A stretch of DNA of 64,000 nucleotides from Minisyncoccia bacterium (GCA_046293175.1 JBKBPM010000001.1:511847-575846); one strand, 5' to 3'. Shown: positions 12,323-42,396, numbered from the stretch's first letter. A program made the numbers and translations. Notes: generated by a model from the sequence alone, not told the origin.

Positions 12323-12404
12323 GCCTCGGTGGCGGAATTGGTATACGCGCACGACTCAAAATCGTGTATCGCAAGGTGTGAGGGTTCGACCCCCTCCCGA
12401 GGCA
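12323..12404 (+). tRNA. tRNA-Leu(CAA)
   Basis: Hand fold. Acceptor GCCTCGG/CCGAGGC, anticodon stem CACGA/TCGTG with loop CTCAAAA, long variable arm, T-arm GAGGG-TTCGACC-CCCTC, discriminator A. Confidence 0.85.
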
Positions 12405-12439
12405 CAATGAATCCCTGTTTAGGGGTTTTGTGTCTCGGA

Positions 12440-12575
12440 GAACATGACTAGATCTCATGTTCATGAGTGGGTCGAAGAGGTTGCCAGCTATTTTTGAGTT
12501 TAGCGAAAAAATAACGACAACCTGTACCGATTCTGTAAGAATCAAGTCCCCCCTCCGGCACCATAGCAAATACAA
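12440..12575 (+). repeat. tRNA-associated structured repeat, copy G (downstream of tRNA-Leu-CAA)
   Basis: gaagaggttgccagctatttttgag...gacaacctgtaccgattctgtaagaatcaagtcccccctccggcacca. Homologous to the copies at 17935, 27423(-), 51522 and 58037(-). Stems covary between copies (ggttgcc/gacaacc here, ccttgcc/gacaagg in copy A). It ends in a diverged copy of the tRNA-Leu 3' end. Flanked by 22-nt hairpin direct repeats at 12408-12430 and 12575-12598. Confidence 0.6.
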
Positions 12576-15222: not shown

Positions 15223-16212
15223 TTAACACGAGACATTTACCTCTCCTCTTCGACCACCCCAATCACAATGCACGTGCCCTGACCCCGAATACATCATTAT
15301 AAAACTAGCTCCAACCGCCCGACATACTCTGACAATATCACATCGACCAGCTCGTCCACCAGCAGAAGTAAGATCAAGCGCTACGCCAGAAGAATGACGA
15401 GAACCGTTACCCCCACGGCTGCACGGCCGAGCAACTGTTCCTTGCTGCTGGCATCGAGGGCACTGATCCCAAAGTTCCGTTTGTCTGGCATCAGATCGGT
15501 ATGAACTGGTAACGCTAAGACTAGGCAGAGATCTTTGCATGGCTGTAAAGCGACCGGCGACGTAAGCTGTCGCCCGGTGATTGCCTTGTCCAGGTATACT
15601 TACCAAAGAACTCTCATTAAAACTACAATTACTTCCGACGGCAGGATTTGGTATAGGCATCCCCGCCGGACCAGGAATGGTGGCTGGAATAATTGTTACA
15701 TCCTCACCTCCTGGAATAGATTCATTTGGTTCAAACGTCACTGGGGTAAACGAGCCCGGGGTTGGTGTCGGCTGAGAATAACACTCCACCGTACTCCAAT
15801 AAAGCCAACCAGTCACCTGCCCATTTGGTATTTGCCCCTCTGAGCCTTCGCGTCCAACCAAACCGCGCATAATGGTGTCAACAATCAGCCACGCTGCCAG
15901 CACAATAATAAGCCCAATAAATGCATTTACAAATCGGTTCTTCGCTTCATCGAGTGCATGATGATTGCCGCCGGAGGTGACGAGGCCAAAACCAGCGTAG
16001 GCGAGGATAACCGCGAAGATAATAAAAAGAAATCCAATGAGCCAGGTGATGAGGCCGTTGGCAAGATGCACTAAGTTACAGGCTGAACAGTCTGGACCAG
16101 AACAGCCGGCGTATTCCGCCAGTGAGGTTTGAGCAATGGCCACGTCCGGCACCACCATTGGTAGAATGAGAGTAAAACTGAAGATAGCTAAAAATAGTCC
16201 GAACCGCATCAT
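15223..16212 (-). CDS. TrbC/VirB2-like two-TM pilin-type domain fused to M15-family (VanY-like) peptidoglycan peptidase
   Basis: 329 aa. Signal peptide, Cys-rich segment, then TM1-GG(N)xxxxExAK-TM2 (AYAGFGLVTSGGNHHALDEAKNR...IGLIIVLAAWLIV). Pro/Thr linker QPTPTPGSFTPVTFEPNESIPG. The C-terminus has SSYRSDARQTELW ... HSSGVALDL ... HVHCDW, matching the LAS/M15 zinc peptidase pattern (SxxR, HxxGxAxD, H). Confidence 0.6.
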   Translation of the reverse strand: MMRFGLFLAIFSFTLILPMVVPDVAIAQTSLAEYAGCSGPDCSACNLVHLANGLITWLIGFLFIIFAVILAYAGFGLVTSGGNHHALDEAKNRFVNAFIGLIIVLAAWLIVDTIMRGLVGREGSEGQIPNGQVTGWLYWSTVECYSQPTPTPGSFTPVTFEPNESIPGGEDVTIIPATIPGPAGMPIPNPAVGSNCSFNESSLVSIPGQGNHRATAYVAGRFTAMQRSLPSLSVTSSYRSDARQTELWDQCPRCQQQGTVARPCSRGGNGSRHSSGVALDLTSAGGRAGRCDIVRVCRAVGASFIMMYSGSGHVHCDWGGRRGEVNVSC

Positions 16213-16217
16213 GATGC

Positions 16218-16721
16218 TTACAATTTTACACTACCGGGACAGAAGCTAAATCGGTAATCAGCACCAGAAGCAGCTTCATCAACATACCCAGGCACACTCA
16301 CGGTGTAATCGAGTCCACACATCTGGGCCTCACTCAGGTTAAGAGTCTTTTTTAGATAGGCTTCGACCGATAGCCGACTTGCTGCGAACGGCTTTTTGAG
16401 AAGTATGATATTAAAATATTTTGTCTCAGCATCAAAAGTAACAATGTACTCGGCTGTTTGGACATCTTCAAAAGTGTTACCTAGAAAATAGTCATTTGTA
16501 TTATATGCAGCTGGAGTGACTTCAGGTAAGGCTAGAAAGTTTTCAACATCAATACTTTTACCGTTTGCTAATGGAAGGGTCACACCGCTATCACTTGGCT
16601 TCGCTACCGAATTATCTGGCCTCGTGATAGAAGCATCCTTTATTAAACTATTATAAAGGATATATACACTGATTGGGATGAAAACAACAAATATAATTGT
16701 AATGACTAAAGAAAATTTCAT
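16218..16721 (-). CDS. hypothetical membrane-anchored/secreted protein (AT-rich gene)
   Basis: 167 aa with an N-terminal TM. Codon usage is more AT-rich than its neighbours. Confidence 0.45.
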   Translation of the reverse strand: MKFSLVITIIFVVFIPISVYILYNSLIKDASITRPDNSVAKPSDSGVTLPLANGKSIDVENFLALPEVTPAAYNTNDYFLGNTFEDVQTAEYIVTFDAETKYFNIILLKKPFAASRLSVEAYLKKTLNLSEAQMCGLDYTVSVPGYVDEAASGADYRFSFCPGSVKL

Positions 16722-16730
16722 ACTAATGTA

Positions 16731-17663
16731 TTACATCCTACCACCATAGGCACGGACACAAGACGCTGCCCGATTATTGCAACCAGGACAAGTCCAGTCG
16801 CGATAACCACGTGTACGAACTAACCGCACCATCATTTGTATATTACACTGCGCACGCATACAATTTGATCGCCAATCATTACAAGCTCCGGGCGGCGGAT
16901 TGCTTCTCCACGTGGTTCGTGTTATCTGAAACGTACCACAGGCAGTTGAATTAGAACCTGGGTGTGTTTCATTATACGGTGGAGTATTTGGATTACCAGA
17001 ACTCTCAGTCATCGCAATGCAAGACATTACATTTGCCTGTACTGGTGTTAAGCCCGCTGCTTGTAGTGCCGCTACACTACAAGCACTATTTGAAGGACTA
17101 CACTGCACACCGCCACCTGGTCCACCGCCAGAGCCACCGCCAGATAAACTGCCGCCAGTAGCACCGGTAATATAGGTGTAGCTACCTGGTATAACCACCA
17201 CACGATTACCAGGAATCTCAGTATTTGGATCAAAAGTTTGTGGAGTAAAAGTCCCTGGGTCCGGGTTTGGTTGTGCCACACAACTCAGTTCATTCCACAT
17301 CCCAAGTCGTGTCTCACCATCAAGGAGTAACATGCGCATACCGGTGTCAATGAGAAGCCAGCCGGCGAGGACAATCACATAGCCAATAATCATGTTACTA
17401 ATCATTGATTTGGCATCTTCTTTGGCATGGCGATTGCCACCAGAGGTCACAAGCTTAAAGCCAGCGTAGACGATAATAATGGCAGCGACCGTACCAAGAA
17501 TGAGCACGAGCCAAGAAATCACCCGATTGACGAGTTCTACCACATAACACATCTGACAAGCCGGTTCACCCTCACCCCCACAAGGAACAAGACCCGCTGC
17601 ATAGGAAAGCAGTGGCACTGCTACGAGCACCAAAAACAATACACTGCCCCAAAATCGCTTCAT
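16731..17663 (-). CDS. TrbC/VirB2-like two-TM pilin-type domain fused to SLT-type lytic transglycosylase (VirB1-like)
   Basis: 310 aa. The N-terminal 150 aa are about 45% identical to the N-domain of 15223..16212 (VYAGFKLVTSGGNRHAKEDAKSM...IGYVIVLAGWLLIDTGMRML; linker QPNPDPGTFTPQTFDPNTEIPG). Gly-rich spacer. The C-terminus CIAMTESSGNPNTPP...STACGTFQI matches the SLT catalytic Glu-Ser ... GLMQ-type motif. Confidence 0.6.
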   Translation of the reverse strand: MKRFWGSVLFLVLVAVPLLSYAAGLVPCGGEGEPACQMCYVVELVNRVISWLVLILGTVAAIIIVYAGFKLVTSGGNRHAKEDAKSMISNMIIGYVIVLAGWLLIDTGMRMLLLDGETRLGMWNELSCVAQPNPDPGTFTPQTFDPNTEIPGNRVVVIPGSYTYITGATGGSLSGGGSGGGPGGGVQCSPSNSACSVAALQAAGLTPVQANVMSCIAMTESSGNPNTPPYNETHPGSNSTACGTFQITRTTWRSNPPPGACNDWRSNCMRAQCNIQMMVRLVRTRGYRDWTCPGCNNRAASCVRAYGGRM

Positions 17664-17767
17664 ATACTAGTCCATTTAGCGTACCACATTCCCCCCTTTG
17701 AAAATAGCCACAAACTGTGGTAACGTACAACCCACGTAGCCAATGTGCTACAGACCAAGTATCAATT

Positions 17768-17850
17768 GCGTCGGTACTCAAGTGGTCAACGAGGGGGGAC
17801 TGTAAATCCCCTGGCATCTGCCTACGAAGGTTCGAATCCCTCCCGGCGCA
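17768..17850 (+). tRNA. tRNA-Tyr(GTA)
   Basis: Acceptor GCGTCGG/CCGGCGC (one G-U pair), anticodon stem GGGGA/TCCCC with loop CTGTAAA, long variable arm GGCATCTGCC, T-loop TTCGAAT, discriminator A. Confidence 0.75.
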
Positions 17851-17895
17851 CACCAAAAAAACAGCTCAGGCAAATGCCTGGGCGATTTTTATTGT

Positions 17896-18029
17896 GTGCC
17901 GGGAAGTAAAGTGTGTGGGACACACTTTACGCGGGATTCGAAGACCTTGCCTGCTATTTTGTGAGGTACGAAACAAAATAGTGACAAGGTGTACTGAAGC
18001 TGTAAGCTTCGAATCCCTCCCGGCGCACA
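17896..18029 (+). repeat. tRNA-associated structured repeat, copy A, with a perfect 24-nt duplicate of the tRNA-Tyr 3' end
   Basis: Hairpin gtaaagtgtgt-ggga-cacactttac, then the core gattcgaagaccttgcctgctattttgtgaggtacgaaacaaaatagtgacaaggtgtactgaagctgtaagc, then gcttcgaatccctcccggcgcaca (18006-18029). The last segment matches tRNA-Tyr 17829-17852 at 22/24 positions. Confidence 0.65.
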
Positions 18030-18094
18030 ACAACTGATTAGAATGCAATGTATTTGGATCATTACCTATTCCATCGACACTGTTCGATACTCGA

Positions 18095-27422: not shown

Positions 27423-27515
27423 GAAACCAAAGGCGGGATTCGAACTTTACAAGTTCAGTACATGTTGTCGCTCTTTTACAGAAAAGAGCTGGCAACCTTT
27501 TCGAATCCCTTGTCA
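27423..27515 (-). repeat. tRNA-associated structured repeat, copy E (downstream of tRNA-Cys), ending in a diverged copy of the tRNA-Cys 3' end
   Basis: Minus-strand read: aaggttgccagctcttttctgtaaaagagcgacaacatgtactgaacttgtaaagttcgaatcccgcctttggtttca. The plus-strand tgaaaccaaaggcgggattcgaac matches tgagaccgaggcgggattcgaac (the tRNA-Cys 3' end) at 21/24 positions. Confidence 0.6.
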
Positions 27516-27550
27516 AAATAAAACACCCTCAATCGGGTACTTTATTATTG

Positions 27551-27624
27551 AGACCGAGGCGGGATTCGAACCCGCGCGTGGCGGTTTTGCAAACCGCAGT
27601 GTTAACCGCTTCACCACTCGGTCT
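27551..27624 (-). tRNA. tRNA-Cys(GCA)
   Basis: Acceptor GACCGAG/CTCGGTC, anticodon stem GCGGT/ACCGC with loop TTGCAAA, T-arm GCGGG-TTCGAAT-CCCGC, discriminator U. Confidence 0.8.
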
Positions 27625-28211: not shown

Positions 28212-28276
28212 ACGCGCAACACTTAAAATGTTGTGAGCGAAAGCTCTTATGGGTTCAAGTCCCATTCCCGGCACCA
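28190..28276 (+). tRNA. tRNA-Leu(TAA), CCA encoded
   Basis: Acceptor GCCGGGG/TCCCGGC, anticodon stem CAACA/TGTTG with loop CTTAAAA, long variable arm, T-arm ATGGG-TTCAAGT-CCCAT, A73, CCA. Confidence 0.85.
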
Positions 28277-28278
28277 TA

Positions 28279-28316
28279 ACAAAACACTCCATGGATATGG
28301 AGTGTTTTGTTATTTT
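28279..28316. terminator. perfect hairpin terminator (copy 1 of a duplicated terminator)
   Basis: aacaaaacactccat-ggat-atggagtgttttgtt followed by attttct. The arms are identical to the hairpin at 29094-29126. Confidence 0.7.
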
Positions 28317-28678: not shown

Positions 28679-29095
28679 ATGACCACCCCAGCATTCGCCT
28701 TCGGTGACGGGATCACTCCTCCTACCCCTTTTGTCCTCCTCGAACAGATTATTGAAGATCGCGGCAGTCGCTATAGCGTGAGCTACGGCCACGTACAGAG
28801 TCGCGAGGATATCAAAACCTTTCTCAAAACCCTCAAAAAAGACAAGGCCTATATGCGCGCCGATCACAACAGCTTCGCTGCTCGTATCGAACACGAAGGA
28901 GTGATCTATGAAACCAAAAACGATGATGGTGAGACTGGCGCCGGGATGGTGATTCTCCGCATGCTCCAAAAACACGATGTCAGATGCGGGGTCGTCTGTG
29001 TAACCCGCTGGTTCGGTGGCATCAAGCTGATGGGTGACCGGTTTAAACATATCCAAGACGCCACCATCATCGCTATCAACCACATGCAGTCATAA
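28679..29095 (+). CDS. YigZ/IMPACT-family (UPF0029) N-domain protein
   Basis: 138 aa from the internal Met. GSRYSVSYGHV...DDGETGAGMVILRML...VVCVTRWFGGIKLMG matches the IMPACT/YigZ core. Confidence 0.7.
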   Translation: MTTPAFAFGDGITPPTPFVLLEQIIEDRGSRYSVSYGHVQSREDIKTFLKTLKKDKAYMRADHNSFAARIEHEGVIYETKNDDGETGAGMVILRMLQKHDVRCGVVCVTRWFGGIKLMGDRFKHIQDATIIAINHMQS

Positions 29096-29130
29096 CAAAA
29101 CACTCCATCTAGATGGAGTGTTTTGTATTT
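29094..29130. terminator. perfect hairpin terminator (copy 2 of the duplicated terminator)
   Basis: aacaaaacactccat-ctag-atggagtgttttgt followed by attttgtt. Shared by yigZ-like (+) and trhO (-). Confidence 0.7.
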
Positions 29131-29135
29131 TGTTA

Positions 29136-30336: not shown

Positions 30337-30477
30337 ACTAAGTGGAATGGGGGCAATGTGCCTACCGGCGTCCCCTTCTTGGTCTGAATGTCCAAGAGCG
30401 GCATCCGGTAGGTGCACCCGCTCACCTTGGTCACGGCAACAGCGCCGGTTGACAACAATATAGCAAAGGAACACAAC

Positions 30478-31989
30478 ATGCTGATGTATATTGCAGCGAT
30501 CCTCCTCGTCATGGGAGTCACCCTCTACTTCTACCAACAGCGACCGCAGCTCAATGGTGTACTTGCAAAAGTCACCTCAGAGCGTGAAAGCGCCATTGGC
30601 ATCAAAGGAATCGTCATTGGACCGGTACAAATGGTCCTTATCCGTTTCCTCGGTGTGCCCATTATCGCTTTCATCATTTCGGCACTTGTTGGATTGCTGG
30701 TGAGCTTTGTCATCGTTGCTTCGACGACAATGACGCTTTTCAGCGCCAGCCAACTCCTCCTCATCGGCCTTGTGGCTATGATCGGTGGCGGTATCATCAC
30801 CGCTGTGCTCATTTGGCCAGAAACTGATGATGACGGGAAACCGCTGGTTGTACCAACAAACACGGTGGCGCCGCTCACCTTCTTTGGCACCCTCTACCGG
30901 ATTTATCTGCTCGAGGGTGACTATGCCTGGTGGGGACGGAAGCTGTTCTTCAGCCGGTCGAAAGTCGCACTCCGCGACTTTACAACACGGGTAAAAGACG
31001 GTGATGTTGCTGACGGCTTCTTCAAGCGCACGCCCATTCCCTTCAACCTCTACAACGAACGACCGAAAGAAAAGGATGGGAAAACCATCATCGGAAGTTC
31101 GCTCATCGAGGGGGTGGCCAAAGGCGGGAGCCCGGTGAAAGCCGAGCTCCTGACGACATTTGTCAGCTTTGACCCCCATCGCGCTCTCCGCAACGATGAT
31201 CCGGGTCTTGAAATTGCTGAACGTGCTCGTTCGATGTTTCGGACCTGCATCAGCTATTTCACTTCGGTCGACAATGCAGTGGCTAAAGACGCCATGGCAC
31301 ACCTCATCGAAGGCAAGACTATCGTCGTGGCTTTCCTCCTGAAATCGGCCGATCAGCTGGCGGAAGGTTCAATCGTCCGGGACACGGGAGGCGAACCCAC
31401 CTACTTCATTGTCGAAGCGAAGGCAGGCGAAGACCTCAAGAATCCTAAGGATCTGAAGAAGGCGACCGCCAGGACCATTCGGGAGTACAAGAAACATCTC
31501 GATGCGCACCTGACCAAAACGATGCGTGACGCTGTCACCATCGAAGTGGAAAGGGACCAGAAAGATGGCTCAACGACCAAAGAAAAAGAGTATGTCATCG
31601 AAACCCGGTCGGTTGAGATTGGCCTCAACGAAATCCTCGAGAAGAACGGTTTCTACCTGACGTCGGCCTCGGTCGGTCATGTGGAAATCAGCGAGAACCT
31701 GTCTCGCTTGGCGGTGGCTGCTGAAATGCAGACATATGAAAACACCGTCCAGGTAAGGAGTGCCCAAGCGACTGCGGCGGCACTCGAAAAACTGAAGAGT
31801 TCTCCCGAACAGATGAATGACCCCGCCTACCTCGACAAAATCGGTATTGCTGCGGCATCCGATCCGGGAGGCAAGTCGCAATTCATTCGGGCGTCGACCG
31901 ACAACAAGCTTGCCACGGTCGGCGTCGCTGCGGCCGTGGTCAACCAACAACCGTCGCAGAAACCTGCGTCGGAAGCAGCAAAGGACTGA
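30478..31989 (+). CDS. hypothetical large membrane protein (4 N-terminal TM helices plus soluble about 350-aa domain), GC-rich island gene 1
   Basis: About 503 aa from the Met preceded by aaaggaac. No recognisable catalytic motif. Local GC is about 57-58% against about 50% in the flanks. Its stop lies 2 nt before the next gene's ATG. Confidence 0.55.
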   Translation: MLMYIAAILLVMGVTLYFYQQRPQLNGVLAKVTSERESAIGIKGIVIGPVQMVLIRFLGVPIIAFIISALVGLLVSFVIVASTTMTLFSASQLLLIGLVAMIGGGIITAVLIWPETDDDGKPLVVPTNTVAPLTFFGTLYRIYLLEGDYAWWGRKLFFSRSKVALRDFTTRVKDGDVADGFFKRTPIPFNLYNERPKEKDGKTIIGSSLIEGVAKGGSPVKAELLTTFVSFDPHRALRNDDPGLEIAERARSMFRTCISYFTSVDNAVAKDAMAHLIEGKTIVVAFLLKSADQLAEGSIVRDTGGEPTYFIVEAKAGEDLKNPKDLKKATARTIREYKKHLDAHLTKTMRDAVTIEVERDQKDGSTTKEKEYVIETRSVEIGLNEILEKNGFYLTSASVGHVEISENLSRLAVAAEMQTYENTVQVRSAQATAAALEKLKSSPEQMNDPAYLDKIGIAAASDPGGKSQFIRASTDNKLATVGVAAAVVNQQPSQKPASEAAKD

Positions 31990-31991
31990 CC

Positions 31992-33356
31992 ATGAAAGCG
32001 GTACTCGCAAGCACAAACACCAAACTGCAAGGTCTGGTGCAATCGAAGTGGATGGTCTTGGGCCTGCTTGGCCTCGGCATCATCCTGCTCATCCTCAATC
32101 TTTTTGTCGGGGGCGATTCCGCCCCCGTGAATCCGACGACAGTGGAAGCGCCGGCCGTTGATGCGGTTGAAGCACCTGCTGCTCCAGCGATCGACCTCGA
32201 GGTGAATACGGAAGGTTTCTTCGCCTCCATCGGTGAAGGAAACTTCTGGCTTGCAATGACCATCATTTTGGCGATTCTCATGACCGCCAACTGGGCTAGC
32301 AAGCTCATGAAAGAACCACCGGCAAAAGTCTTCGACAAGGCCAGCAAAACCTGGGTGGAAAATAAGAACACCAACCCAGTACCTCGCTTCAAGGCAAGCT
32401 TTGTCTGGCTCATCGCCGGCGTGCTCATGGTCGTCGTCGGATTGTGGGGAATCTACCCTGCCTTCTTCGGCGAAAACAACGAAATCTCCGAAATCTTCGG
32501 TGAACTCGGACTCTTTGACATCATCGCCGTCGGCGCGATCGCCATCACGCTCGTCGTCGGTGCTGTCAAATACATGGGGATTGCCGGCAATGCTTCTGCC
32601 TACTTCTTCATGGTGGGGTGGGTTCTCCTCGTGTTTTTCGCCATCCTCTACCTGATTGGTATCTTCCTTGCCCCTGATGCGACTACTCTCATCATCGAGG
32701 CCGTCAAGAACGATGCACAAAGCGCCGCTGCGAGCATCGTCGAAACGACCGAAGAGACCAGCTCTATCAAATGGGAGGCACTCTTCGACCCTGAGACCTG
32801 GACAAACATCGCCATCATCGCCATCCTCACATTGGCGCCGGTGGTGGTGTTCCACCAATACATCTCAAAGAACAAGCTGGTGGTGGTGCCGGTCGCCATC
32901 GTGGCAATGATGATTCTGTTCGGCAGCATCTACAAGATACTGATCGAATACGAACCGGCACGAGAGGTCATTGAAGACGTGAGCGGCGCCCTTGGCGCCG
33001 CTAACGAAAAGTTCAACCCGACCCTGGGCGAAAGTCTGAGCCTTCGGCTCTATAAAGATGATCTCGGGCGAGCCAGCACGATTTCGCTCGGGATGCACGA
33101 TGACTTGACTGTCTTTGTGCCCGAAGACGGCTATGCCCTCTGTATCGACGCAAGCGCAAGCTTCAAACGCCGTTACGAGGATCGCGGCTGGTTTGACCCG
33201 ACCCATGTGGTCGATATCACCAGCTACAACCGGAACATGGCCAACCGCCTCACAGTGGCAGAAGCCATGAAGCCGGGGCTCAAGGCCGAAGGCATCGAGC
33301 GGGTTACCTACACCATCATCCTCATGAGGACCGGTGGTGTCTGTAACCCTCAGTGA
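31992..33356 (+). CDS. hypothetical polytopic membrane protein (about 8 TM), GC-rich island gene 2
   Basis: 454 aa. Translationally coupled to the upstream gene. Followed by a strong terminator. Confidence 0.55.
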   Translation: MKAVLASTNTKLQGLVQSKWMVLGLLGLGIILLILNLFVGGDSAPVNPTTVEAPAVDAVEAPAAPAIDLEVNTEGFFASIGEGNFWLAMTIILAILMTANWASKLMKEPPAKVFDKASKTWVENKNTNPVPRFKASFVWLIAGVLMVVVGLWGIYPAFFGENNEISEIFGELGLFDIIAVGAIAITLVVGAVKYMGIAGNASAYFFMVGWVLLVFFAILYLIGIFLAPDATTLIIEAVKNDAQSAAASIVETTEETSSIKWEALFDPETWTNIAIIAILTLAPVVVFHQYISKNKLVVVPVAIVAMMILFGSIYKILIEYEPAREVIEDVSGALGAANEKFNPTLGESLSLRLYKDDLGRASTISLGMHDDLTVFVPEDGYALCIDASASFKRRYEDRGWFDPTHVVDITSYNRNMANRLTVAEAMKPGLKAEGIERVTYTIILMRTGGVCNPQ

Positions 33357-33427: not shown

Positions 33428-33470
33428 CGAACCCCTCCGTCAGTCTATCGACGGTGGGGTTCTTTTTTTA
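33428..33470 (+). terminator. rho-independent terminator ending the GC-rich island
   Basis: aacccctccgtc-agtctat-cgacggtggggtt followed by ctttttttat. Confidence 0.7.
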
Positions 33471-33480
33471 TATGTCGGTA

Positions 33481-33873
33481 TTAGCAGGGACCAGAACCGG
33501 TACAAGGAGGCGGTACGTAGAGGGAAGCATCAATACAATTAGCGTTAAGTGGGTCACTCGCACAATCTAACGTATCTTGTAGACCAAAAGTCCCAGCGGC
33601 AATACCAAGGATACTGTAAGCCACGAGCATAATAAACATCCCCACTATCCCCCAGAGAATATGCATCTGGCCAGTCTCACGGGCACTACTTTCGGCACTG
33701 TGGCTGATGTACTCGTAGCAGCCGTAGAGGAAGATGAGGAGCGCAAGCCCCATCAAAAGCATTATCAGCGGGTATAAAATTACTTCATTGAGTCGCTCAA
33801 CAAAGTTATAAGCTTCACGCATACCGGGTGTTGGTCCTTGAGCGTACGCAATTGATACAAAAAATCCAAACAT
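33481..33873 (-). CDS. TrbC/VirB2-like small two-TM pilin-type protein (paralogue 5)
   Basis: 130 aa from MFGFFVSIAYAQG. Signal peptide, TM1, charged loop (HSAESSARETGQ), TM2. Confidence 0.5.
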   Translation of the reverse strand: MFGFFVSIAYAQGPTPGMREAYNFVERLNEVILYPLIMLLMGLALLIFLYGCYEYISHSAESSARETGQMHILWGIVGMFIMLVAYSILGIAAGTFGLQDTLDCASDPLNANCIDASLYVPPPCTGSGPC

Positions 33874-33934
33874 AAACAACAACAGTATAACACAAAAGCC
33901 CCGCGAGGGGCTTTTGTGTAGACTGTGTTTGGTA

Positions 33935-34312
33935 CTAGTTACCAAGAGTTGGCACCTCTGGAGTAGTGTCCAGTGAATCTTCAAGACCAAGACCATTTGA
34001 GAGAATGTTCACAATACCCCAAAAGGCGAGAATAACTACATATCCAGCAATGGCGTACATGATGAGACTGCGGCCATTTTCCTTGGCTTCTTCGTTTGCA
34101 CCACCACGAATGAAGTAGTTAAACATTCCCCACACAAACATGAGGAAACCGATGGCCAGAATAAATGGAATAACATAGCCACTAATGAAAGCAAGGATGG
34201 CTGTCATTGCGCCACCAATATCTCCACCATCGCCGCCATTGAGTACAGCTGCAGAGGCTGGAAAAGCCACCGCGAGGCTAGCCAATACAACAAGAGAAAG
34301 GAATGATTTCAT
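33935..34312 (-). CDS. TrbC/VirB2-like small two-TM pilin-type protein (paralogue 4)
   Basis: 125 aa. Signal peptide AFPASA, then FIRGGANEEAKENGRSLIMYAIAGYVVILAFWGIV matching the GGNxxAKEDAK-TM2 core of the 15223 and 16731 N-domains. Confidence 0.6.
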   Translation of the reverse strand: MKSFLSLVVLASLAVAFPASAAVLNGGDGGDIGGAMTAILAFISGYVIPFILAIGFLMFVWGMFNYFIRGGANEEAKENGRSLIMYAIAGYVVILAFWGIVNILSNGLGLEDSLDTTPEVPTLGN

Positions 34313-34477
34313 ATGATTCTAAATACGATAAAAGAAGCGGATATGTATGCTTCATATATTATTATACACGAAAAGTAAGATTTTTAAAGGGTTTCAATCC
34401 CGGGTGTGCAAAAGTTACATGAACAACAGTAATTAATCACAAGTCTTCAAAAAAAGAACAGTAGCGAGGCGCGAAAG

Positions 34478-34585
34478 CGAAGAAATGTGAGATGTGAAGA
34501 AACACGGGGCGTTTCTGCAAGACTCATTGAGCATTTTGCGAATGAAATGATGCAAAAGGCCAATGAGTGGACAGTTTCTGTAAGA
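34478..34585 (+). repeat. structured repeat, copy C (subfamily 2, orphan; between pilin-like genes)
   Basis: gtgagatgtgaagaaacacggggcgtttctgcaagactcattgagcattttgcgaatgaaatgatgcaaaaggccaatgagtggacagtttctgtaag. About 80% identical to copy D at 41943-42030. Hairpins gaaac/gtttc, actcattg/caatgagt and ttttgc/gcaaaa. Confidence 0.6.
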
Positions 34586-34651
34586 AACTTTTGTATGATG
34601 AACGTTTCTGATGCGAACCGCAACCAAGCTAATGACTTTTTATGGAGACTT

Positions 34652-34900
34652 TTAATTGCCGGTAAGAAGAGCGAGTATCCCCCAAATCGATACCATGATA
34701 ATCATCACCACCACGGCCGTGATAGCTATTGTCGTACCCTCCTCACGCTTACTTGGATCATCAGCATGAATGACCCAGGCGTCTATCATCTTCCACAGTA
34801 CAACGAGGAAGGCAATGGCAAAGATGAAGGTGATAGCCAGATTAACAAACTCCAAAAAGAAGCTTACTAGTCCAGCGAAGTCTGTCGGGGTGGAGTCCAT
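34652..34900 (-). CDS. small two-TM membrane protein, probable TrbC/VirB2-like paralogue 6 (no signal peptide)
   Basis: 82 aa. TM1, DDPSKREEG loop, TM2. Confidence 0.4.
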   Translation of the reverse strand: MDSTPTDFAGLVSFFLEFVNLAITFIFAIAFLVVLWKMIDAWVIHADDPSKREEGTTIAITAVVVMIIMVSIWGILALLTGN

Positions 34901-34921
34901 AATAATTACACAGGCTCCACC

Positions 34922-35308
34922 TTAGGCGGCGAAACTGTCAACGGTATTCCTGATAATTTCTGCAATAGCAACCGCTGCAAGAATGAGTACTCCGCCGATG
35001 ATTGCGTAGGTGAAGGTGGTGGTGGCTTCTTCGATCTGTCTCGGATTACCCTGCGCGGTTACGTACTTAAAGCCAGCCAAGATGATAAAGAGAACAATAA
35101 TCGGAATCATGAGCACCATAAAGATGTTGAGGATGGCGATAAGCAGTTCCTCGATAGAGTTTACGCGGAGTGGGTTATCGAGAGTGACTGGTTCAATCGA
35201 AGGAGTACCACCTGTAGTTTGCTGAGCCTGCACATAGGTAGTTAAAAAACCAAAAAAGAGAGTGGGAAGACACATAACCAAGAAACCAATTTTTTGAAGT
35301 ATACTCAT
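34922..35308 (-). CDS. TrbC/VirB2-like small two-TM pilin-type protein (paralogue 3)
   Basis: 128 aa. Signal peptide, then ILAGFKYVTAQGNPRQIEEATTTFTYAIIGGVLILAAVAI, which aligns with VYAGFKLVTSGGNRHAKEDAKSM... of the 16731 gene. Confidence 0.6.
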   Translation of the reverse strand: MSILQKIGFLVMCLPTLFFGFLTTYVQAQQTTGGTPSIEPVTLDNPLRVNSIEELLIAILNIFMVLMIPIIVLFIILAGFKYVTAQGNPRQIEEATTTFTYAIIGGVLILAAVAIAEIIRNTVDSFAA

Positions 35309-35330: not shown

Positions 35331-36632
35331 CTAATACTCCTGACTCATCCGTCCGACCGCATCCTGGGCTGCTTCACCTGGCCGGCTGCGATTCGCGAGG
35401 ATATCTTCTACCATCTGCGTGAAGATACTGTCAACCACGCGGGGTGTTGGCGATAACCAGCCGCGAGCAACCACCGCTGAGGCGTAAATAATTCTACCAT
35501 AGGTATCACCCGAACCGGCCGCGAGTGAAGATCGATGCGCTGGTGCCATCCCAAGATAATCCGCCATCGACTTAGAAAAATCAGATCCGCCAATGAGTTG
35601 CATTGCAAGATACGCTCCTGATTTGTTATTGGAAGACTTCAACAGCGAGAGACCATAAAATGTTCCATACGTGCGGCGAACCGTAGCAGCGGCACCCTGT
35701 GGTACTTCGGCGATATCGAAGTTGAGGTTTGGATTTTGAGCAGCGAGATCACGGGCTTCACTACCCTTCCCAAAATAGAGAATGAGATCTTCAGACAGAA
35801 AGGCATCCCGATCAGTAGGTTTGGCACGGTTCCAACTGTAGAGAGGGTTACTTGGACTCGCAAAATTGGTGTAGAAGGTCACCGCGGCTTCGAGTGGCAT
35901 TCGGCTCCGGTCTGGCGTCTGATTCAGACTCATAATATAGCGGTCGTCTGAACCTTCACTGACAAGACTACTGCCACCTTGGATCGTAAGCATCGAAAGA
36001 ATGAGTCCGGCATTGGTCACATTACGGTACTCACCAAAAGCAATGGGACTTAAGGTAATATTGCGATTAAAATCACGCTCAACAAAGGTCGGAACGATAT
36101 CGTTCACAATTGATTCCCATGTACGCGGAGCTGCGAGGACATTTTTACTTGAGAGAATATCCCGATTCCAGTACATCACCAGAGGGTCAATCGCAATTGG
36201 GTAACCATACACACCATCTGTCATTGCCCAAATCTCGGCCCCGTCAATGTAGAGGTTTTTAAAATCGCGGGCAGGAAAATTGTCGTACGGAATTGGTTGG
36301 ATTTTACTCCGGTACGACACCAATTCCTCGTGTGGCAATAAGAGGAGGTCGGGGCCACGTCCTTCAGCCAAAGCATTGAGCACCTCACTATCAAATGTAT
36401 CTCTACTCATCTCTTTGTATTGGATTGAACGATACGCCGGGTTGACTTTTATAATTGGTGCCATCACCGTATTAAAAGCATCATCAGGAAGAGTCCCCCA
36501 GATTTCTACGGTACCAAGCGCTACTTTGGTTGTATCAGCCGGTGGTGTATAGGTCGCTAAAAGACCAAGCGCTAACAGGCCTAAGAGACCAAAGCCGAGG
36601 ACAAGAAATAATTCAAAAGGTCTAAGTTTCAT
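35331..36632 (-). CDS. extracellular solute-binding protein (ABC transporter SBP family 1-like)
   Basis: 433 aa. N-terminal TM/signal and a periplasmic-binding fold pattern (DLLLLPHEELVSY..., PLVMYWNRDIL...). Overlaps the upstream methyltransferase gene by 4 nt. Confidence 0.55.
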   Translation of the reverse strand: MKLRPFELFLVLGFGLLGLLALGLLATYTPPADTTKVALGTVEIWGTLPDDAFNTVMAPIIKVNPAYRSIQYKEMSRDTFDSEVLNALAEGRGPDLLLLPHEELVSYRSKIQPIPYDNFPARDFKNLYIDGAEIWAMTDGVYGYPIAIDPLVMYWNRDILSSKNVLAAPRTWESIVNDIVPTFVERDFNRNITLSPIAFGEYRNVTNAGLILSMLTIQGGSSLVSEGSDDRYIMSLNQTPDRSRMPLEAAVTFYTNFASPSNPLYSWNRAKPTDRDAFLSEDLILYFGKGSEARDLAAQNPNLNFDIAEVPQGAAATVRRTYGTFYGLSLLKSSNNKSGAYLAMQLIGGSDFSKSMADYLGMAPAHRSSLAAGSGDTYGRIIYASAVVARGWLSPTPRVVDSIFTQMVEDILANRSRPGEAAQDAVGRMSQEY

Positions 36633-37252
36633 AGTTTTCGAAATGAGACACCATAGTGGTAACTACCAGCTGGGTACTCGCGTTCGTAAATAAAGTAGTT
36701 GGCTTCAAAGAGATCAATGGTGATATCACGCGGTCGCACCATCTCTGGTGTTGGACCAAGGCCATCAAAACTATCTATCCAGTCAACGACGTATACAATA
36801 CCATGTGGACGTAAGGTTCGATACACTTCAGCTATGGCAGCAGCGAGGTCTTCGATCTGGTAGAGGGTGTTAATAATCACCACAAAGTCAGCTGCCGCAT
36901 CGGGCAAATTTGTGCCGCCACGACTGGTAGCGTCTGCCCACACCACCTCAACATTATCGTAACCAAGCTCACGAGCACGCTTATAGAGTGAATTAACCAG
37001 CGGTCGCTGTACCTCCACCGCAATTACCTTGCCAGCCGAACCAACCTTACGGGCGAGGTGCGGGATGTACACACCTTGGCCAGCGCCATAATCAACCACC
37101 ACCGAACCTGGCTCGATGTGAAAGTGTGAGGACACGAGACGTGGCTCCAAAAAGCGCGGCAGTGTCACTGATTCCATACTTCTAGTATACAGCCTGGCTG
37201 CACCGACTTTTCCTACCTCTGGGGATGTGCAAAACACCAACGACGTAAACAA
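36629..37252 (-). CDS. class I SAM-dependent methyltransferase
   Basis: 207 aa (start possibly the internal Met at 37177). Motif I VVDYGAGQGVYIPHLA. Confidence 0.65.
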   Translation of the reverse strand: MFTSLVFCTSPEVGKVGAARLYTRSMESVTLPRFLEPRLVSSHFHIEPGSVVVDYGAGQGVYIPHLARKVGSAGKVIAVEVQRPLVNSLYKRARELGYDNVEVVWADATSRGGTNLPDAAADFVVIINTLYQIEDLAAAIAEVYRTLRPHGIVYVVDWIDSFDGLGPTPEMVRPRDITIDLFEANYFIYEREYPAGSYHYGVSFRKL

Positions 37253-39931: not shown

Positions 39932-40209
39932 AACAGAACAGCGGGTCTTTTAACGATAAATAACGGCATTAGTATAACATAAATTAGAACACATCAACTA
40001 ACCCTATCTCCGTGATTACCTGCGTCGTAATACGTTCACCGTACAATCAAGTACGCCTCGTATTATCGTTCATTGCCTTCTTAGAGTAGCTGTCCAATCA
40101 TTGGTCTATTTGCTTCGCAAAGCTCCCAAATATACACAATGAGTCTTGCGAAAAGTACCCCATACTTTTCTCAACTAGGATACAGAGTCATTTGTAGCGT
40201 TCTAAGCAA

Positions 40210-41263: not shown

Positions 41264-41505
41264 AGTGGCACTAGTATACAAGAGAACGAATGAAAATGAA
41301 AAGTTATTGCTGCCTCGCAAGGCAATGTCCTGCTCACAGCAGTGCTTGCTAAAATTAAAATCAAGAAATATCGTAATCCGTACCGCCGATTTTTTGCACC
41401 AAGCGCGAACCCGGGTCCTCAAGACCGACGTTCGTGGACGAACCTATCGTCCGACTGGTGCCTAGTTTCTGGCGGTGTTTGCGAAACGGGAATAAGGAGA
41501 CATCC

Positions 41506-41652
41506 ATGCCCGATTCGATTGACCGCGGCCATATCCGCGGTTCCCCCGCTGGCGGACACGTCAGCAACCACGGCCACATCGGTTCCTTCGCGTCGCCTTC
41601 GACGATGGACCAGGCCGAATTCGCCACCCCGACGGGAGGTGTCGTGATCTGA
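41506..41652 (+). CDS. small His/Gly-rich ORF with perfect Shine-Dalgarno sequence in a GC-rich (about 63%) patch
   Basis: 48 aa: MPDSIDRGHIRGSPAGGHVSNHGHIGSFASPSTMDQAEFATPTGGVVI. AAGGAG lies 5 nt upstream of the ATG. It sits in the 1.1-kb intergenic region upstream of rpsA. Confidence 0.3.
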   Translation: MPDSIDRGHIRGSPAGGHVSNHGHIGSFASPSTMDQAEFATPTGGVVI

Positions 41653-41942
41653 ACAACGATCTGACCAAAGTGAGGTGAAAGACATGAAACCGCCGAAGTA
41701 AGTTCTTCATCGCAGAATCCACGAGAAGTGCTCTGGGTAACTCTGCACTGTTCTACCAAGCAGCTTGACTGCACAAGATCTCAGAAGAGATCACATGACA
41801 GGGAGGGTATGGGTATGCATCACGCTATCCTACCCGACCGCCAATCCGCCTGCGGCCGCCAGCCGTGGGTTTTTCATTGATTCAATTTTGAAGTTAATTC
41901 AAGAAACAAAGTGGTGGTGCGCGGACAGTGCCATTAGGGATA

Positions 41943-42030
41943 GTGAGAAAAGCGTGGGACGCTTTTTGCAAGACTCATTGAGTGATTTTATGAGTGCGAA
42001 CGAAATAAAATAACCAATGAGTAGACAGCC
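41943..42030 (+). repeat. structured repeat, copy D (subfamily 2, orphan; rpsA upstream region)
   Basis: gtgagaaaagcgtgggacgctttttgcaagactcattgagtgattttatgagtgcgaacgaaataaaataaccaatgagtagacagcctctgtagga. Covaries with copy C: aagcg/cgctt here versus gaaac/gtttc in C, and attttat/ataaaat here versus ttttgc/gcaaaa in C. Confidence 0.6.
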
Positions 42031-42396
42031 TCTGTAGGAGGATTGCTCGCGAAAGTTCGCCATTGTCGGCCAGAAAGGCCTCTGTGGCTCACTTTACATA
42101 TATATTGTTTTCTGGTATATTCCCCGCACCGAAAGGTATTAATAGTTTCCTAGCGACACACGTTAACCCTGAGCTTATGGGTATGGCCGGTGAATAATTC
42201 TACGAATTTTTCACTTTGCGAAATGGTAGCTCAGACGCGTGTCGTCGGAATAAATAAGTAAGCATAAGACTTACAGAATCGAGACAGATTCGCGAAGTGA
42301 CGAAATTTCAAATGAGCCGTACTTTGCGGTACGGCGAGTGCCGAAATTGATGACACGACAAAGAAGCTGGCCGATTGTGGAAGTCGCTACAGTTAT

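Follow-up and report, generated by a model that had tools for sequence, protein, structure and literature searches.

A putative type IV secretion pilin array in a patescibacterial chromosome and the structured, tRNA-associated repeat found within it

Tandem arrays of divergent pilin genes have already been published for Patescibacteria. A series of essential predicted pilins was described in the type IV secretion system (T4SS) cluster of Southlakia epibionticum ML1 (Wang 2023; PMC10633639), and a survey based on the families PF18895 and PF04956 reported 441 arrays of 2-11 pilin genes, with a mean identity of 25%, in 383 assemblies, the arrays being most abundant in Microgenomatia and Saccharimonadia (Quinonero-Coronel 2025; PMC12102498). 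In that survey an array was defined as at least two highly divergent PF18895- or PF04956-type pilin genes lying in tandem or one non-pilin gene apart, and the patescibacterial T4SS was described as affine to the monoderm MPF-FATA class (PMC12102498). A 2025 review also highlights the patescibacterial pilin arrays (PMC12857230). Here we describe positions 33,481 to 35,308 of a 64,000-nucleotide stretch of DNA from a Minisyncoccia bacterium (GCA_046293175.1 JBKBPM010000001.1:511847-575846), the whole of which is called the window below. Four consecutive genes at 17-23% identity fit the published array definition, and as an array they add little that is new in kind; the gap between the second and third genes also holds a structured repeat, here named copy C.

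The four open reading frames (ORFs), which the original prediction had listed as consecutive minus-strand genes of 128, 82, 125 and 130 aa, were confirmed. We read them, with a probability of roughly 60%, as a chromosomal, vertically inherited array of divergent VirB2-like “T4SS pilins” (PF18895), whose products, judging from the family, would form a surface filament or channel built by a T4SS. Two of them, P1 (34922-35308, minus strand, 128 aa; 42.9 bits) and P3 (33935-34312, minus strand, 125 aa; 30.3 bits), exceed the gathering cut-off of the Pfam family PF18895 (T4SS_pilin), which stands at 26.6 bits (whole-protein score), as do F1 and F2, two hydrolase fusions encoded from 15223 and 16731, respectively. 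Among the six members of the family in the window, P2 (34652-34900, minus strand, 82 aa; 20.2 bits) and P4 (33481-33873, minus strand, 130 aa; 21.9 bits) alone score below the cut-off; in relatives the orthologues of P4 were scored as PF18895 or as “weak”, and those of P2 were uncalled. The NCBIfam model NF045849 (pilin-like conjugal transfer protein) was matched by all six (18-30.5 bits, E-values from 2e-7 to 1.7e-3), including P4 (4e-4) and P2 (1.7e-3), the latter also matching TIGR03758 (E=2.2e-3). The family membership was further addressed with a hidden Markov model (HMM) built from P1 orthologues only, which retrieved F1 and F2 (E~1e-8), P3 (2e-4) and P4 (0.02) and nothing else from all 653 ORFs of the window with a length of 45 aa or more. 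Profile alignment with hhalign from the P1 family gave E=2.5e-5 for P3, E=7.8e-4 for P4 and a weak, in-register match for P2 (E=0.11), which is the weakest member of the family and was without a match to the P1-orthologue HMM. The homology claimed between the four genes and the N-terminal domains of the genes at 15223 and 16731, six members in all, is thus borne out by PF18895 and by this HMM. Pairwise identity among the six is 17-23%, which points to an old duplication rather than to ongoing gene conversion. P1 is 100% identical to an NCBI protein named “pilin” from the metagenome-assembled genome of a Candidatus Paceibacteria (676-kb contig). A longer, 171-aa ORF reading of P4, reaching 33996 and overlapping P3, was rejected, since stop codons sit directly 5' of the conserved MFGFF start in three relatives.

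Kyte-Doolittle hydropathy showed two long hydrophobic segments and a short charged loop in all six members, in agreement with the two-transmembrane-segment architecture that had been proposed for them, and the AlphaFold2 (AF2) models of P1 and P2 are hairpins. P1 begins with a signal-peptide-like N-terminus of ~28 aa ending in VQA (YVQA/QQ), followed by a 24-aa polar N-extension and a helix-loop-helix, for which AF2 (66 sequences) placed helices at residues 52-84 and 89-127 with a hairpin pLDDT >90. P2 consists of the two-helix hairpin alone, with no signal peptide (AF2 from a single sequence: helices 4-47 and 49-80, pLDDT 84). P3 carries a signal-peptide-like N-terminus ending in ASA (ASA/AV), a Gly-rich N-terminus and a GGANEEAKENG loop, and in P4 an 11-aa hydrophobic N-terminus (MFGFFVSIAYA/Q) precedes the hairpin of two helices, and the C-terminal tail contains four Cys. 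The signal peptide that was supposed to be common to the array can therefore be recognised in P1 and P3, but not in P2, nor in P4 with its short hydrophobic start; likewise the GG(N/A)xxxEEAK loop is exact solely in P3 and the two hydrolase fusions, and not in P1, P2 or P4.

The two fusions belong to a second locus with the same domain (15223-17663, minus strand), in which the Pfam scan covered three genes: F2 (16731-17663), where PF18895 (38.4 bits) is joined to an SLT_3 lysozyme-like domain; a signal-anchored protein of 167 aa with no family match (16218-16721); and F1 (15223-16212), where PF18895 (35.2 bits) is joined to a VanY/M15 peptidase. The combination of PF18895 with PF18896 is common in public data (hundreds of database proteins), and goes undiscussed in the recent survey of patescibacterial pilins (Quinonero-Coronel 2025; PMC12102498). 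In S. epibionticum an essential peptidase and a lysozyme are encoded beside virB4.

The genes upstream of the array had been identified as a solute-binding protein (SBP) and a methyltransferase, and both were confirmed by Pfam. The first (35331-36632, minus strand, 433 aa; PF13416, E=3.8e-10) is a membrane-anchored SBP-like protein with an extracellular SBP_bac_8 domain, a weak MalE-like NCBIfam match and a hydrophobic N-terminal segment in its translation; it lies immediately 5' of the first pilin gene in every relative examined. The second (36629-37177, minus strand; Pfam Methyltransf_31/25/11) is a class I S-adenosylmethionine-dependent methyltransferase, called with 182 aa in relatives and probably the first gene of the unit, the position of which is conserved in loci L002-L007 and L125-L127. 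All related loci retrieved keep the order lactamase_B-like protein, small protein, gyrA, methyltransferase, SBP-like protein, pilins, two convergent membrane proteins and rhodanese, which argues that the array is ancestral and vertically inherited. Seven related loci contain 4-5 pilin genes, four in the closer relatives and five where the identity of P1 is 52-66%. The two convergent membrane proteins (30412-33356, plus strand), always found beside the array, have 525 aa (Band_7/SPFH in relatives) and 454 aa (polytopic); they evolve very fast, sharing 23-50% identity where the gyrA of the same relatives shares 94-98%, and may be surface-exposed and under diversifying pressure.

All relatives examined possess 1:1 orthologues of the four pilin paralogues. 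Their identities of 72-96% are similar to the values for the methyltransferase and the SBP (76-94%) and well above those for the convergent membrane proteins. Among the four, conservation is highest in P2, which shares 85-95% identity with its orthologues. Approximate dN/dS ratios, computed with dS near saturation, were 0.03-0.17 for the pilins and 0.01-0.09 for their neighbours, against 0.38-0.59 for the 454-aa membrane protein, and indicate that the pilins are under purifying selection. P3 is the most variable paralogue, with 78% identity to its orthologue in the closest relative (L006) compared to 88-98% for the neighbours and a dN of 0.18, its changes being located in the tails at the two termini, which are predicted to be exposed. 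The array was also searched for signals of phase variation, and neither homopolymers of at least 8 nt nor tandem repeats nor promoter-bracketing inverted repeats were present, the longest homopolymers being A7/T7 in non-coding DNA. Since the paralogues are anciently diverged and individually conserved, fixed and different roles are suggested rather than a variable repertoire.

Several of the results weigh against calling these proteins T4SS pilins. The match of P1 to TrbC itself (PF04956; 22.9 bits, E=1e-4) stays under the cut-off of 27.9 bits, and P2, P3 and P4 showed no PF04956 match in the Pfam profile scan, so that the TrbC/VirB2-like character originally proposed stands in the sense of PF18895 and not through PF04956, for which a precomputed match exists on some P1 orthologues. 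All six NF045849 scores are below the 40-bit equivalog cut-off, making the proteins related to this family and not members of it, and P2 lacks a signal peptide and is weakly assigned. In the Pfam scan of the larger ORFs of the 64-kb window no VirB4, VirB6, VirB3 or VirD4 gene was found, these ORFs being housekeeping genes (gyrA, clpB, topA, relA/spoT, parB, miaA, serS, dprA, ftsA, ftsZ, a P-type ATPase and others) or without a family match. Comparison of the P1 model with the PDB by Foldseek returned generic helical hairpins (best E=1.2) and no pilin, a non-diagnostic result for a fold as simple as two helices in a hairpin; phmmer with the single sequence and hmmsearch with the 66-sequence profile returned spurious matches to designed “Pizza” proteins and no solved pilin from the same database. 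An hhalign comparison of the P1 family with Agrobacterium tumefaciens VirB2, using an unconfirmed VirB2 sequence, was not significant (E=0.33). In the literature searched, no demonstration of filament formation by any PF18895 protein was found. Finally, as enzymes carry the domain at their N-terminus in F1 and F2, it may be a membrane anchor and not a polymerising subunit. The hairpin could accordingly be a generic Sec-inserted anchor or export module, for instance a component of an SBP-associated complex or of cell-wall remodelling, which forms no filament; the fusions that join it to an M15 peptidase or a lysozyme-like domain, present in the window and, by the hundred, in the databases, the linkage of the array to the SBP and methyltransferase genes and not to T4SS genes in 10/10 loci examined, and the lack of a structural or sequence match among solved pilins would all agree with this. 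We nevertheless regard such a generic anchor as unlikely, given the profile similarity to the conjugative pilin-like families TrbC, NF045849 and TIGR03758/DUF3262 of integrative and conjugative elements (ICEs), the homologous, essential predicted pilins inside the T4SS cluster of S. epibionticum (PMC10633639), and the 1135/1948 assemblies in which such pilins were reported near virB4 (PMC12102498). Far more improbable is the proposal that the paralogues are alternative surface subunits of an antigenic or phase-variable repertoire, as proposed for the VirB2 proteins of Bartonella and Anaplasma. The occurrence of several divergent paralogues in tandem, the same speculation in the patescibacterial survey (PMC12102498) and the higher divergence of P3 in its predicted exposed tails are in its favour; however, 1:1 orthology of every paralogue extends to relatives with a P1 identity as low as 52%, dN/dS is low for 4/4 pilins and switching signals are lacking, and for these reasons the antigenic diversification suggested by the original prediction is not supported.

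Within the array, sequence features point to at least two expression units, one comprising methyltransferase, SBP, P1 and P2, and the other P3, with its own promoter-like site, and P4 behind a hairpin. The apparent operon assumed earlier therefore holds for the first of these units and not beyond it. Its genes are tightly spaced, with a stop-start overlap (-4 nt) between methyltransferase and SBP, 22 nt between SBP and P1, and 21 nt between P1 and P2. The promoter-like site of P3 (TTTAAA-16 nt-TATAAT; 34358-34388, minus strand) has 10/12 matches and lies within a block that is nearly invariant in an alignment of four genomes. Between the P3 stop and the P4 start is a perfect 13-bp palindromic hairpin (33890-33919, not assigned to a strand; ACACAAAAGCCCC/GGGGCTTTTGTGT), 16 nt from the P4 start, the sequence of which is retained in relatives. 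This hairpin likely sets the ratio of P3 to P4 by acting as an attenuator or a partial terminator; as it separates the two genes, P4 would be produced by read-through, probably less abundantly than P3. A G+C-rich hairpin followed by T7 (33463-33469), together spanning 33429-33469 on the plus strand, marks where the pilin unit ends and is the terminator of the convergent gene at 31992-33356.

If the four proteins are T4SS pilins, Sec would insert them as membrane hairpins with the K/R-containing loop in the cytoplasm, and signal peptidase would trim P1 and P3, as can be expected from the family. A VirB4-type T4SS encoded elsewhere in the genome, in Paceibacteria usually near dnaA, would then draw the pilins from the membrane pool and assemble them into a surface filament or conduit serving the epibiotic lifestyle. 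The roles of the paralogues would be fixed and non-interchangeable, in a heteromeric arrangement or one with major and minor subunits, in which P3 may be the abundant subunit, and an accessory or tip position may fall to the hydrolase fusions and to P4, whose tail is rich in Cys. F1 and F2, using the same pilin module, could deliver or anchor wall-degrading enzymes, echoing the peptidase and lysozyme of S. epibionticum.

Copy C was correctly placed by the original prediction between the genes at 34652-34900 and 33935-34312, where it lies in a 339-bp gap between P2 and P3. It is part of an insertion of ~240 bp (34411-34650; core 34490-34597) that starts at the P2 stop codon and alters the C-terminus of P2 from TGNS to TGN. 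The element was modelled twice: R1 was built from three window copies (A, B and C), and R2 from 64 family sequences, independently of A, B and C; copy C scores 87.8 bits with R1 and 28.6 bits (E=5e-6) with R2. Its structured strand is the plus strand, antisense to the pilins, because the G-U pairs found there become A-C mismatches on the other strand. In the closest relative (L006, 10663-10763) and in L002 the P2-P3 spacer is 100 bp long and free of the element. In the more distant L004 (10697-10995) the site after the P2 stop codon is occupied by a homologous but very diverged insertion. With the site occupied in the window and in L004 and empty in L006 and L002, either repeated targeting or precise loss is implied. 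No tRNA-like end, clear target-site duplication or terminal inverted repeats could be defined for copy C. The embedded repeat is thus real and structured, as had been predicted, but foreign to the array, being absent from L006, antisense to the pilins and one of a dispersed, tRNA-associated family; it is probably a lineage-specific and recent insertion, incidental to the array and unrelated to pilin function.

On balance, copy C appears to be a diverged member of an undescribed structured family of Paceibacteria-class Patescibacteria, which would represent either an RNA mimicking a tRNA minihelix or a miniature mobile unit. A search of GTDB (one genome per species) with the pattern GACAANNTGTACYGANNNTGTAA matched at least 117 stretches, compared to an estimated chance expectation of ~9, and among the matches listed nearly all were from Patescibacteria (Paceibacteria, Kaiserbacteria, Nomurabacteria, Vogelbacteria and others). 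The same pattern had 0 matches in 2.9 million viral contigs, a result on which an origin of the element as a phage attP site was rejected. The element is ~80-145 nt long and has an ~80-nt three-way-junction core with an invariant UGUACUGA and GUA. In an alignment of 64 copies the structure is made up of an outer stem of 7 bp, on which a 6-bp hairpin with the loop GUA is directly stacked, and of a long arm in two parts; 95% of the paired cells can pair, compared to ~81% in shuffles and 33-50% with slid partners. Changes on both sides were observed in 17/27 pairs, with 216 compensated cells against ~61 in shuffles, and 0/500 shuffles were as good. The single-stranded motifs GAAR, UGUACYGA and GUA are nearly invariant, and the R2 scores are strand-specific, at 77-86 bits in the forward and 13-14 bits in the reverse orientation. 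By strand topology, the outer stem together with the small hairpin corresponds in these predicted folds to the acceptor/T-arm minihelix of tRNA. Copies A, B and C themselves align at ~78% column identity, with compensatory changes in the 5' hairpin, the long bipartite hairpin and the small 3' hairpin.

No description of the element was found in the literature searched. With Rfam 15 the tRNAs alone reached gathering scores in the window, and permissive searches returned nothing meaningful at E<=10 for A, B and C or at E<=1 for the canonical copies in loci L035, L059 and L117. A hammerhead-like reading of CUGA...GAA was rejected on the order and length of the junction strands, which do not fit, and the Rfam ribozyme models gave no match. 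Also rejected, as a family feature, was a long terminal helix involving an anti-acceptor strand, which occurs in copy E of the window and in some others (~11% of copies, compared to ~3% in the control).

The family is closely linked to tRNA genes. Among the matches listed, 74/115 members with enough flanking sequence lie at most 260 nt 3' of a tRNA on the same strand (median 116 nt), the host tRNAs being of at least 16 identities. The 3'-terminal 20 nt of the tRNA are repeated just after the element, with a median of 17/20 matches for the cognate tRNA and 11/20 for non-cognate ones; a match of at least 17/20 was found in 42/78 cognate pairs and in 0.1% of the non-cognate pairs. Units may be repeated in tandem, up to three per locus, and L006 has two copies after tRNA-Cys (17521-17598 and 17648-17725) where the window has one. 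Copies at the same type of tRNA (Tyr, Cys) are conserved across distant genomes. At one locus (L034, 2593-4521, minus strand), 1.8 kb separate a tRNA-Ser from the element core, after which the 3' end of this tRNA recurs with 19/20 matches; the 1.8 kb hold two ORFs, for a zinc-ribbon protein (94 aa) and for a protein of 287 aa that belongs to no recognised family, and no integrase, and may represent a cargo-carrying element.

Eight copies were found in the 64 kb of the window, ~1 per 8 kb. Copy E (17891-18033, plus strand; R2 94.6 bits) is a canonical tRNA-linked element located 40 nt beyond tRNA-Tyr (17768-17851); its last 30 nt are 93% identical to the 3' end of this tRNA, and it has a minimum free energy of -71.6 kcal/mol compared to -37 for shuffles (z = -8.5). 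Three further elements follow tRNA-Leu(CAA) (tRNA 12323-12405, element 12457-12566, plus strand; R2 76.7 bits), tRNA-Cys (tRNA 27550-27623, element 27425-27515, minus strand; R2 86.1 bits) and tRNA-Ser(CGA) (tRNA 58170-58258, element 58040-58146, minus strand; R2 54.1 bits), the last with a 23-nt 3' tail identical to the tRNA 3' end, so that 4/10 of the window tRNAs have an element beside them. Copy D (51500-51608, plus strand; R1 56.1 and R2 56.7 bits) is located in an ~820-bp non-coding gap after ftsZ and has no tRNA link. Copy A (40069-40177, minus strand) lies between a 128-aa gene and the gyrA promoter region, and is absent upstream of gyrA in L002 and L004, and copy B (41940-42049, plus strand; R2 16 bits, fold z = -4.6) lies in an ~1.1-kb non-coding gap 5' of an S1 (rpsA-like) gene. 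R1 had detected weaker copies at 51500-51608, 17904-18017 and 12457-12550, and the two minus-strand copies beside tRNA-Cys and tRNA-Ser came from a repeat comparison.

Copy C could also be a functional part of the array, acting as an antisense RNA, terminator or stabiliser that controls P1/P2 relative to P3/P4. Its location exactly between the two expression units, from the P2 stop codon on, and its structure, whose strand, as suggested by the G-U pairs, would run antisense into P2, would suit such a role. We hold this to be improbable, as L006 and L002 have an intact array and P3 promoter without copy C, the sister copies A, B and D adjoin the unrelated genes gyrA, rpsA-like and ftsZ, and neither a plus-strand promoter-like site nor a minus-strand terminator was seen at the site. 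A regulatory side-effect through the 3' ends of P1/P2 or through antisense transcription likewise lacks support. As for the nature of the family as a whole, the reading that the element is a miniature, non-autonomous integrative or mobile unit, which targets tRNA 3' ends and duplicates the segment from the T-loop to the discriminator, falls slightly short of an even chance. The three-way junction would then be needed for propagation, as RNA or as single-stranded DNA, and the subfamily of A, B and C would have escaped from tRNA targeting. The direct repeat of the cognate tRNA 3' end after the element, the tandem units whose number varies between close relatives, the presence/absence polymorphism at sites A and C, the one locus with 1.8 kb of cargo between tRNA and core plus repeat, and the density of eight copies per 64 kb argue for mobility; against it stand the lack of an integrase, transposase or reverse transcriptase in the window or beside the copies inspected, the lack of matches in the viral contigs, the missing target-site duplication and terminal inverted repeats at copy C, and the persistence of copies at the same tRNAs (Tyr, Cys) in distant genomes, as would be expected if they were inherited vertically under selection. 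We consider more tentatively that the element is a cellular tRNA-like non-coding RNA, co-transcribed with or beside the tRNA genes, whose stem and hairpin would mimic the acceptor/T-arm minihelix, whose maturation would involve RNase P, RNase Z or the CCA-adding enzyme, and whose junction, formed by UGUACUGA and the GUA loop, would bind a putative partner. Four covarying helices, a strand-specific signal with frequent G-U pairs, the orientation shared with the tRNA, the invariant single-stranded motifs and the conservation at orthologous tRNA loci are consistent with an RNA; however, terminator-like hairpins often lie between tRNA and element, the majority of the window tRNAs carry no element, the copy number is unstable and the long terminal helix is found in a minority of copies.

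A number of other features were observed in the window. The long non-coding gaps that hold copies B and D (41264-42396 and 51265-52084; ~1.1 and ~0.8 kb) are unusual for a 676-kb genome; apart from these copies, neither an Rfam match nor an ORF of 110 aa or more was found in them, and at 51297 and 51476 there is a direct repeat of 28 nt. A partial duplicate of tRNA-Glu (58342-58470, plus strand) lies just 5' of the intact tRNA-Glu (58490-58562) and consists of the 5' acceptor strand and D-arm, an insert of ~72 nt (with an element-like hairpin GAAAAGCGGGTGGCTTTTC and CGAAGAC) and the anticodon arm, without a T-arm. A palindromic sequence of 41 nt that resembles a terminator (CATAACAAAACACTCCAT...ATGGAGTGTTTTGTTAT) occurs twice (28275-28315 and 29091-29131; 88% identical), on either side of a tRNA-Leu/tRNA-Lys cluster and a small ORF. 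A tRNA with anticodon UAU (Ile, AUA) at 54306-54394 (plus strand) combines G73 with a long, class-II-like variable arm. The ATA codon is rare, with 19 occurrences compared to 169 for ATT and 168 for ATC in eight long genes; recoding of AUA through this tRNA was rejected, as ATA aligns with ATT, ATC and Val codons in relatives.

The array suggests that pilin arrays in Paceibacteria can be stable, vertically inherited, set in a housekeeping context and uncoupled from a T4SS cluster, and its individually conserved paralogues argue for fixed roles over antigenic variation; the finding that the hairpin domain also carries a peptidase and a lysozyme bears on whether the “T4SS pilins” of the candidate phyla radiation (CPR) form a host-contacting filament. 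The element matters more than the array, since it is supported by covariation, linked to tRNAs, widespread in a major CPR class and absent from Rfam, and it would add either a class of tRNA mimics to the known RNAs or, to the mobile elements, a miniature one that shapes the tRNA loci of streamlined genomes.

Compared to the patescibacterial arrays of S. epibionticum, of Nanosynbacter lyticus TM7x (“Sec-secreted array”) and of the 441 surveyed loci, the window array shares PF18895, small two-helix genes in tandem, a monoderm CPR host and a low identity between paralogues (~25% there, 17-23% here). It differs in belonging to Paceibacteria, with no T4SS cluster found in the 64-kb window, in its position behind gyrA in a housekeeping context and co-oriented with SBP-like and methyltransferase genes, and in having a P2 without signal peptide and a foreign structured insert. 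With TrbC, VirB2 and TraA (PF04956) of diderm T4SSs it has in common the protein size, the helix-loop-helix topology, a leader in P1 and P3 and a weak profile match of P1, whereas this match is below the cut-off, no virB3 or virB4 is adjacent, no solved pilin was matched and there is no evidence of cyclisation or of lipid-bound filament assembly for the window pilins. The whole hairpin of 6/6 members aligns to the 80-position profile of NF045849 (Mbov_0395 family of monoderm mycoplasma ICEs), which fits the MPF-FATA affinity reported for the patescibacterial T4SS (PMC12102498), although the window genes form a chromosomal array of several paralogues and are not on an ICE. The VirB2 arrays of Bartonella and Anaplasma, for which antigenic variation was proposed, are likewise made of tandem divergent paralogues, while those of the window are orthologously conserved, under apparent purifying selection and without switching signals.

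The structured element, in turn, invites comparison with two groups: tRNA-like RNAs processed by tRNA enzymes (mascRNA-type RNAs, viral tRNA-like structures), and non-autonomous elements, either flanked by att sites or of the miniature inverted-repeat transposable element (MITE) kind, such as the CIME-like and REP/BIME-like ones. It resembles the tRNA-like RNAs in the minihelix topology formed by its coaxial outer stem and hairpin, and it adjoins tRNA genes. Like elements that integrate into tRNA genes, it has the 3' end of the tRNA as a direct repeat, comparable to that at attL/attR, and it is multi-copy and polymorphic; it is, however, far smaller than the known integrative elements (~80-145 nt), and no recombinase is found nearby. 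From REP sequences and MITEs it is set apart by its strand-specific, covarying three-way junction and its invariant single-stranded motifs.

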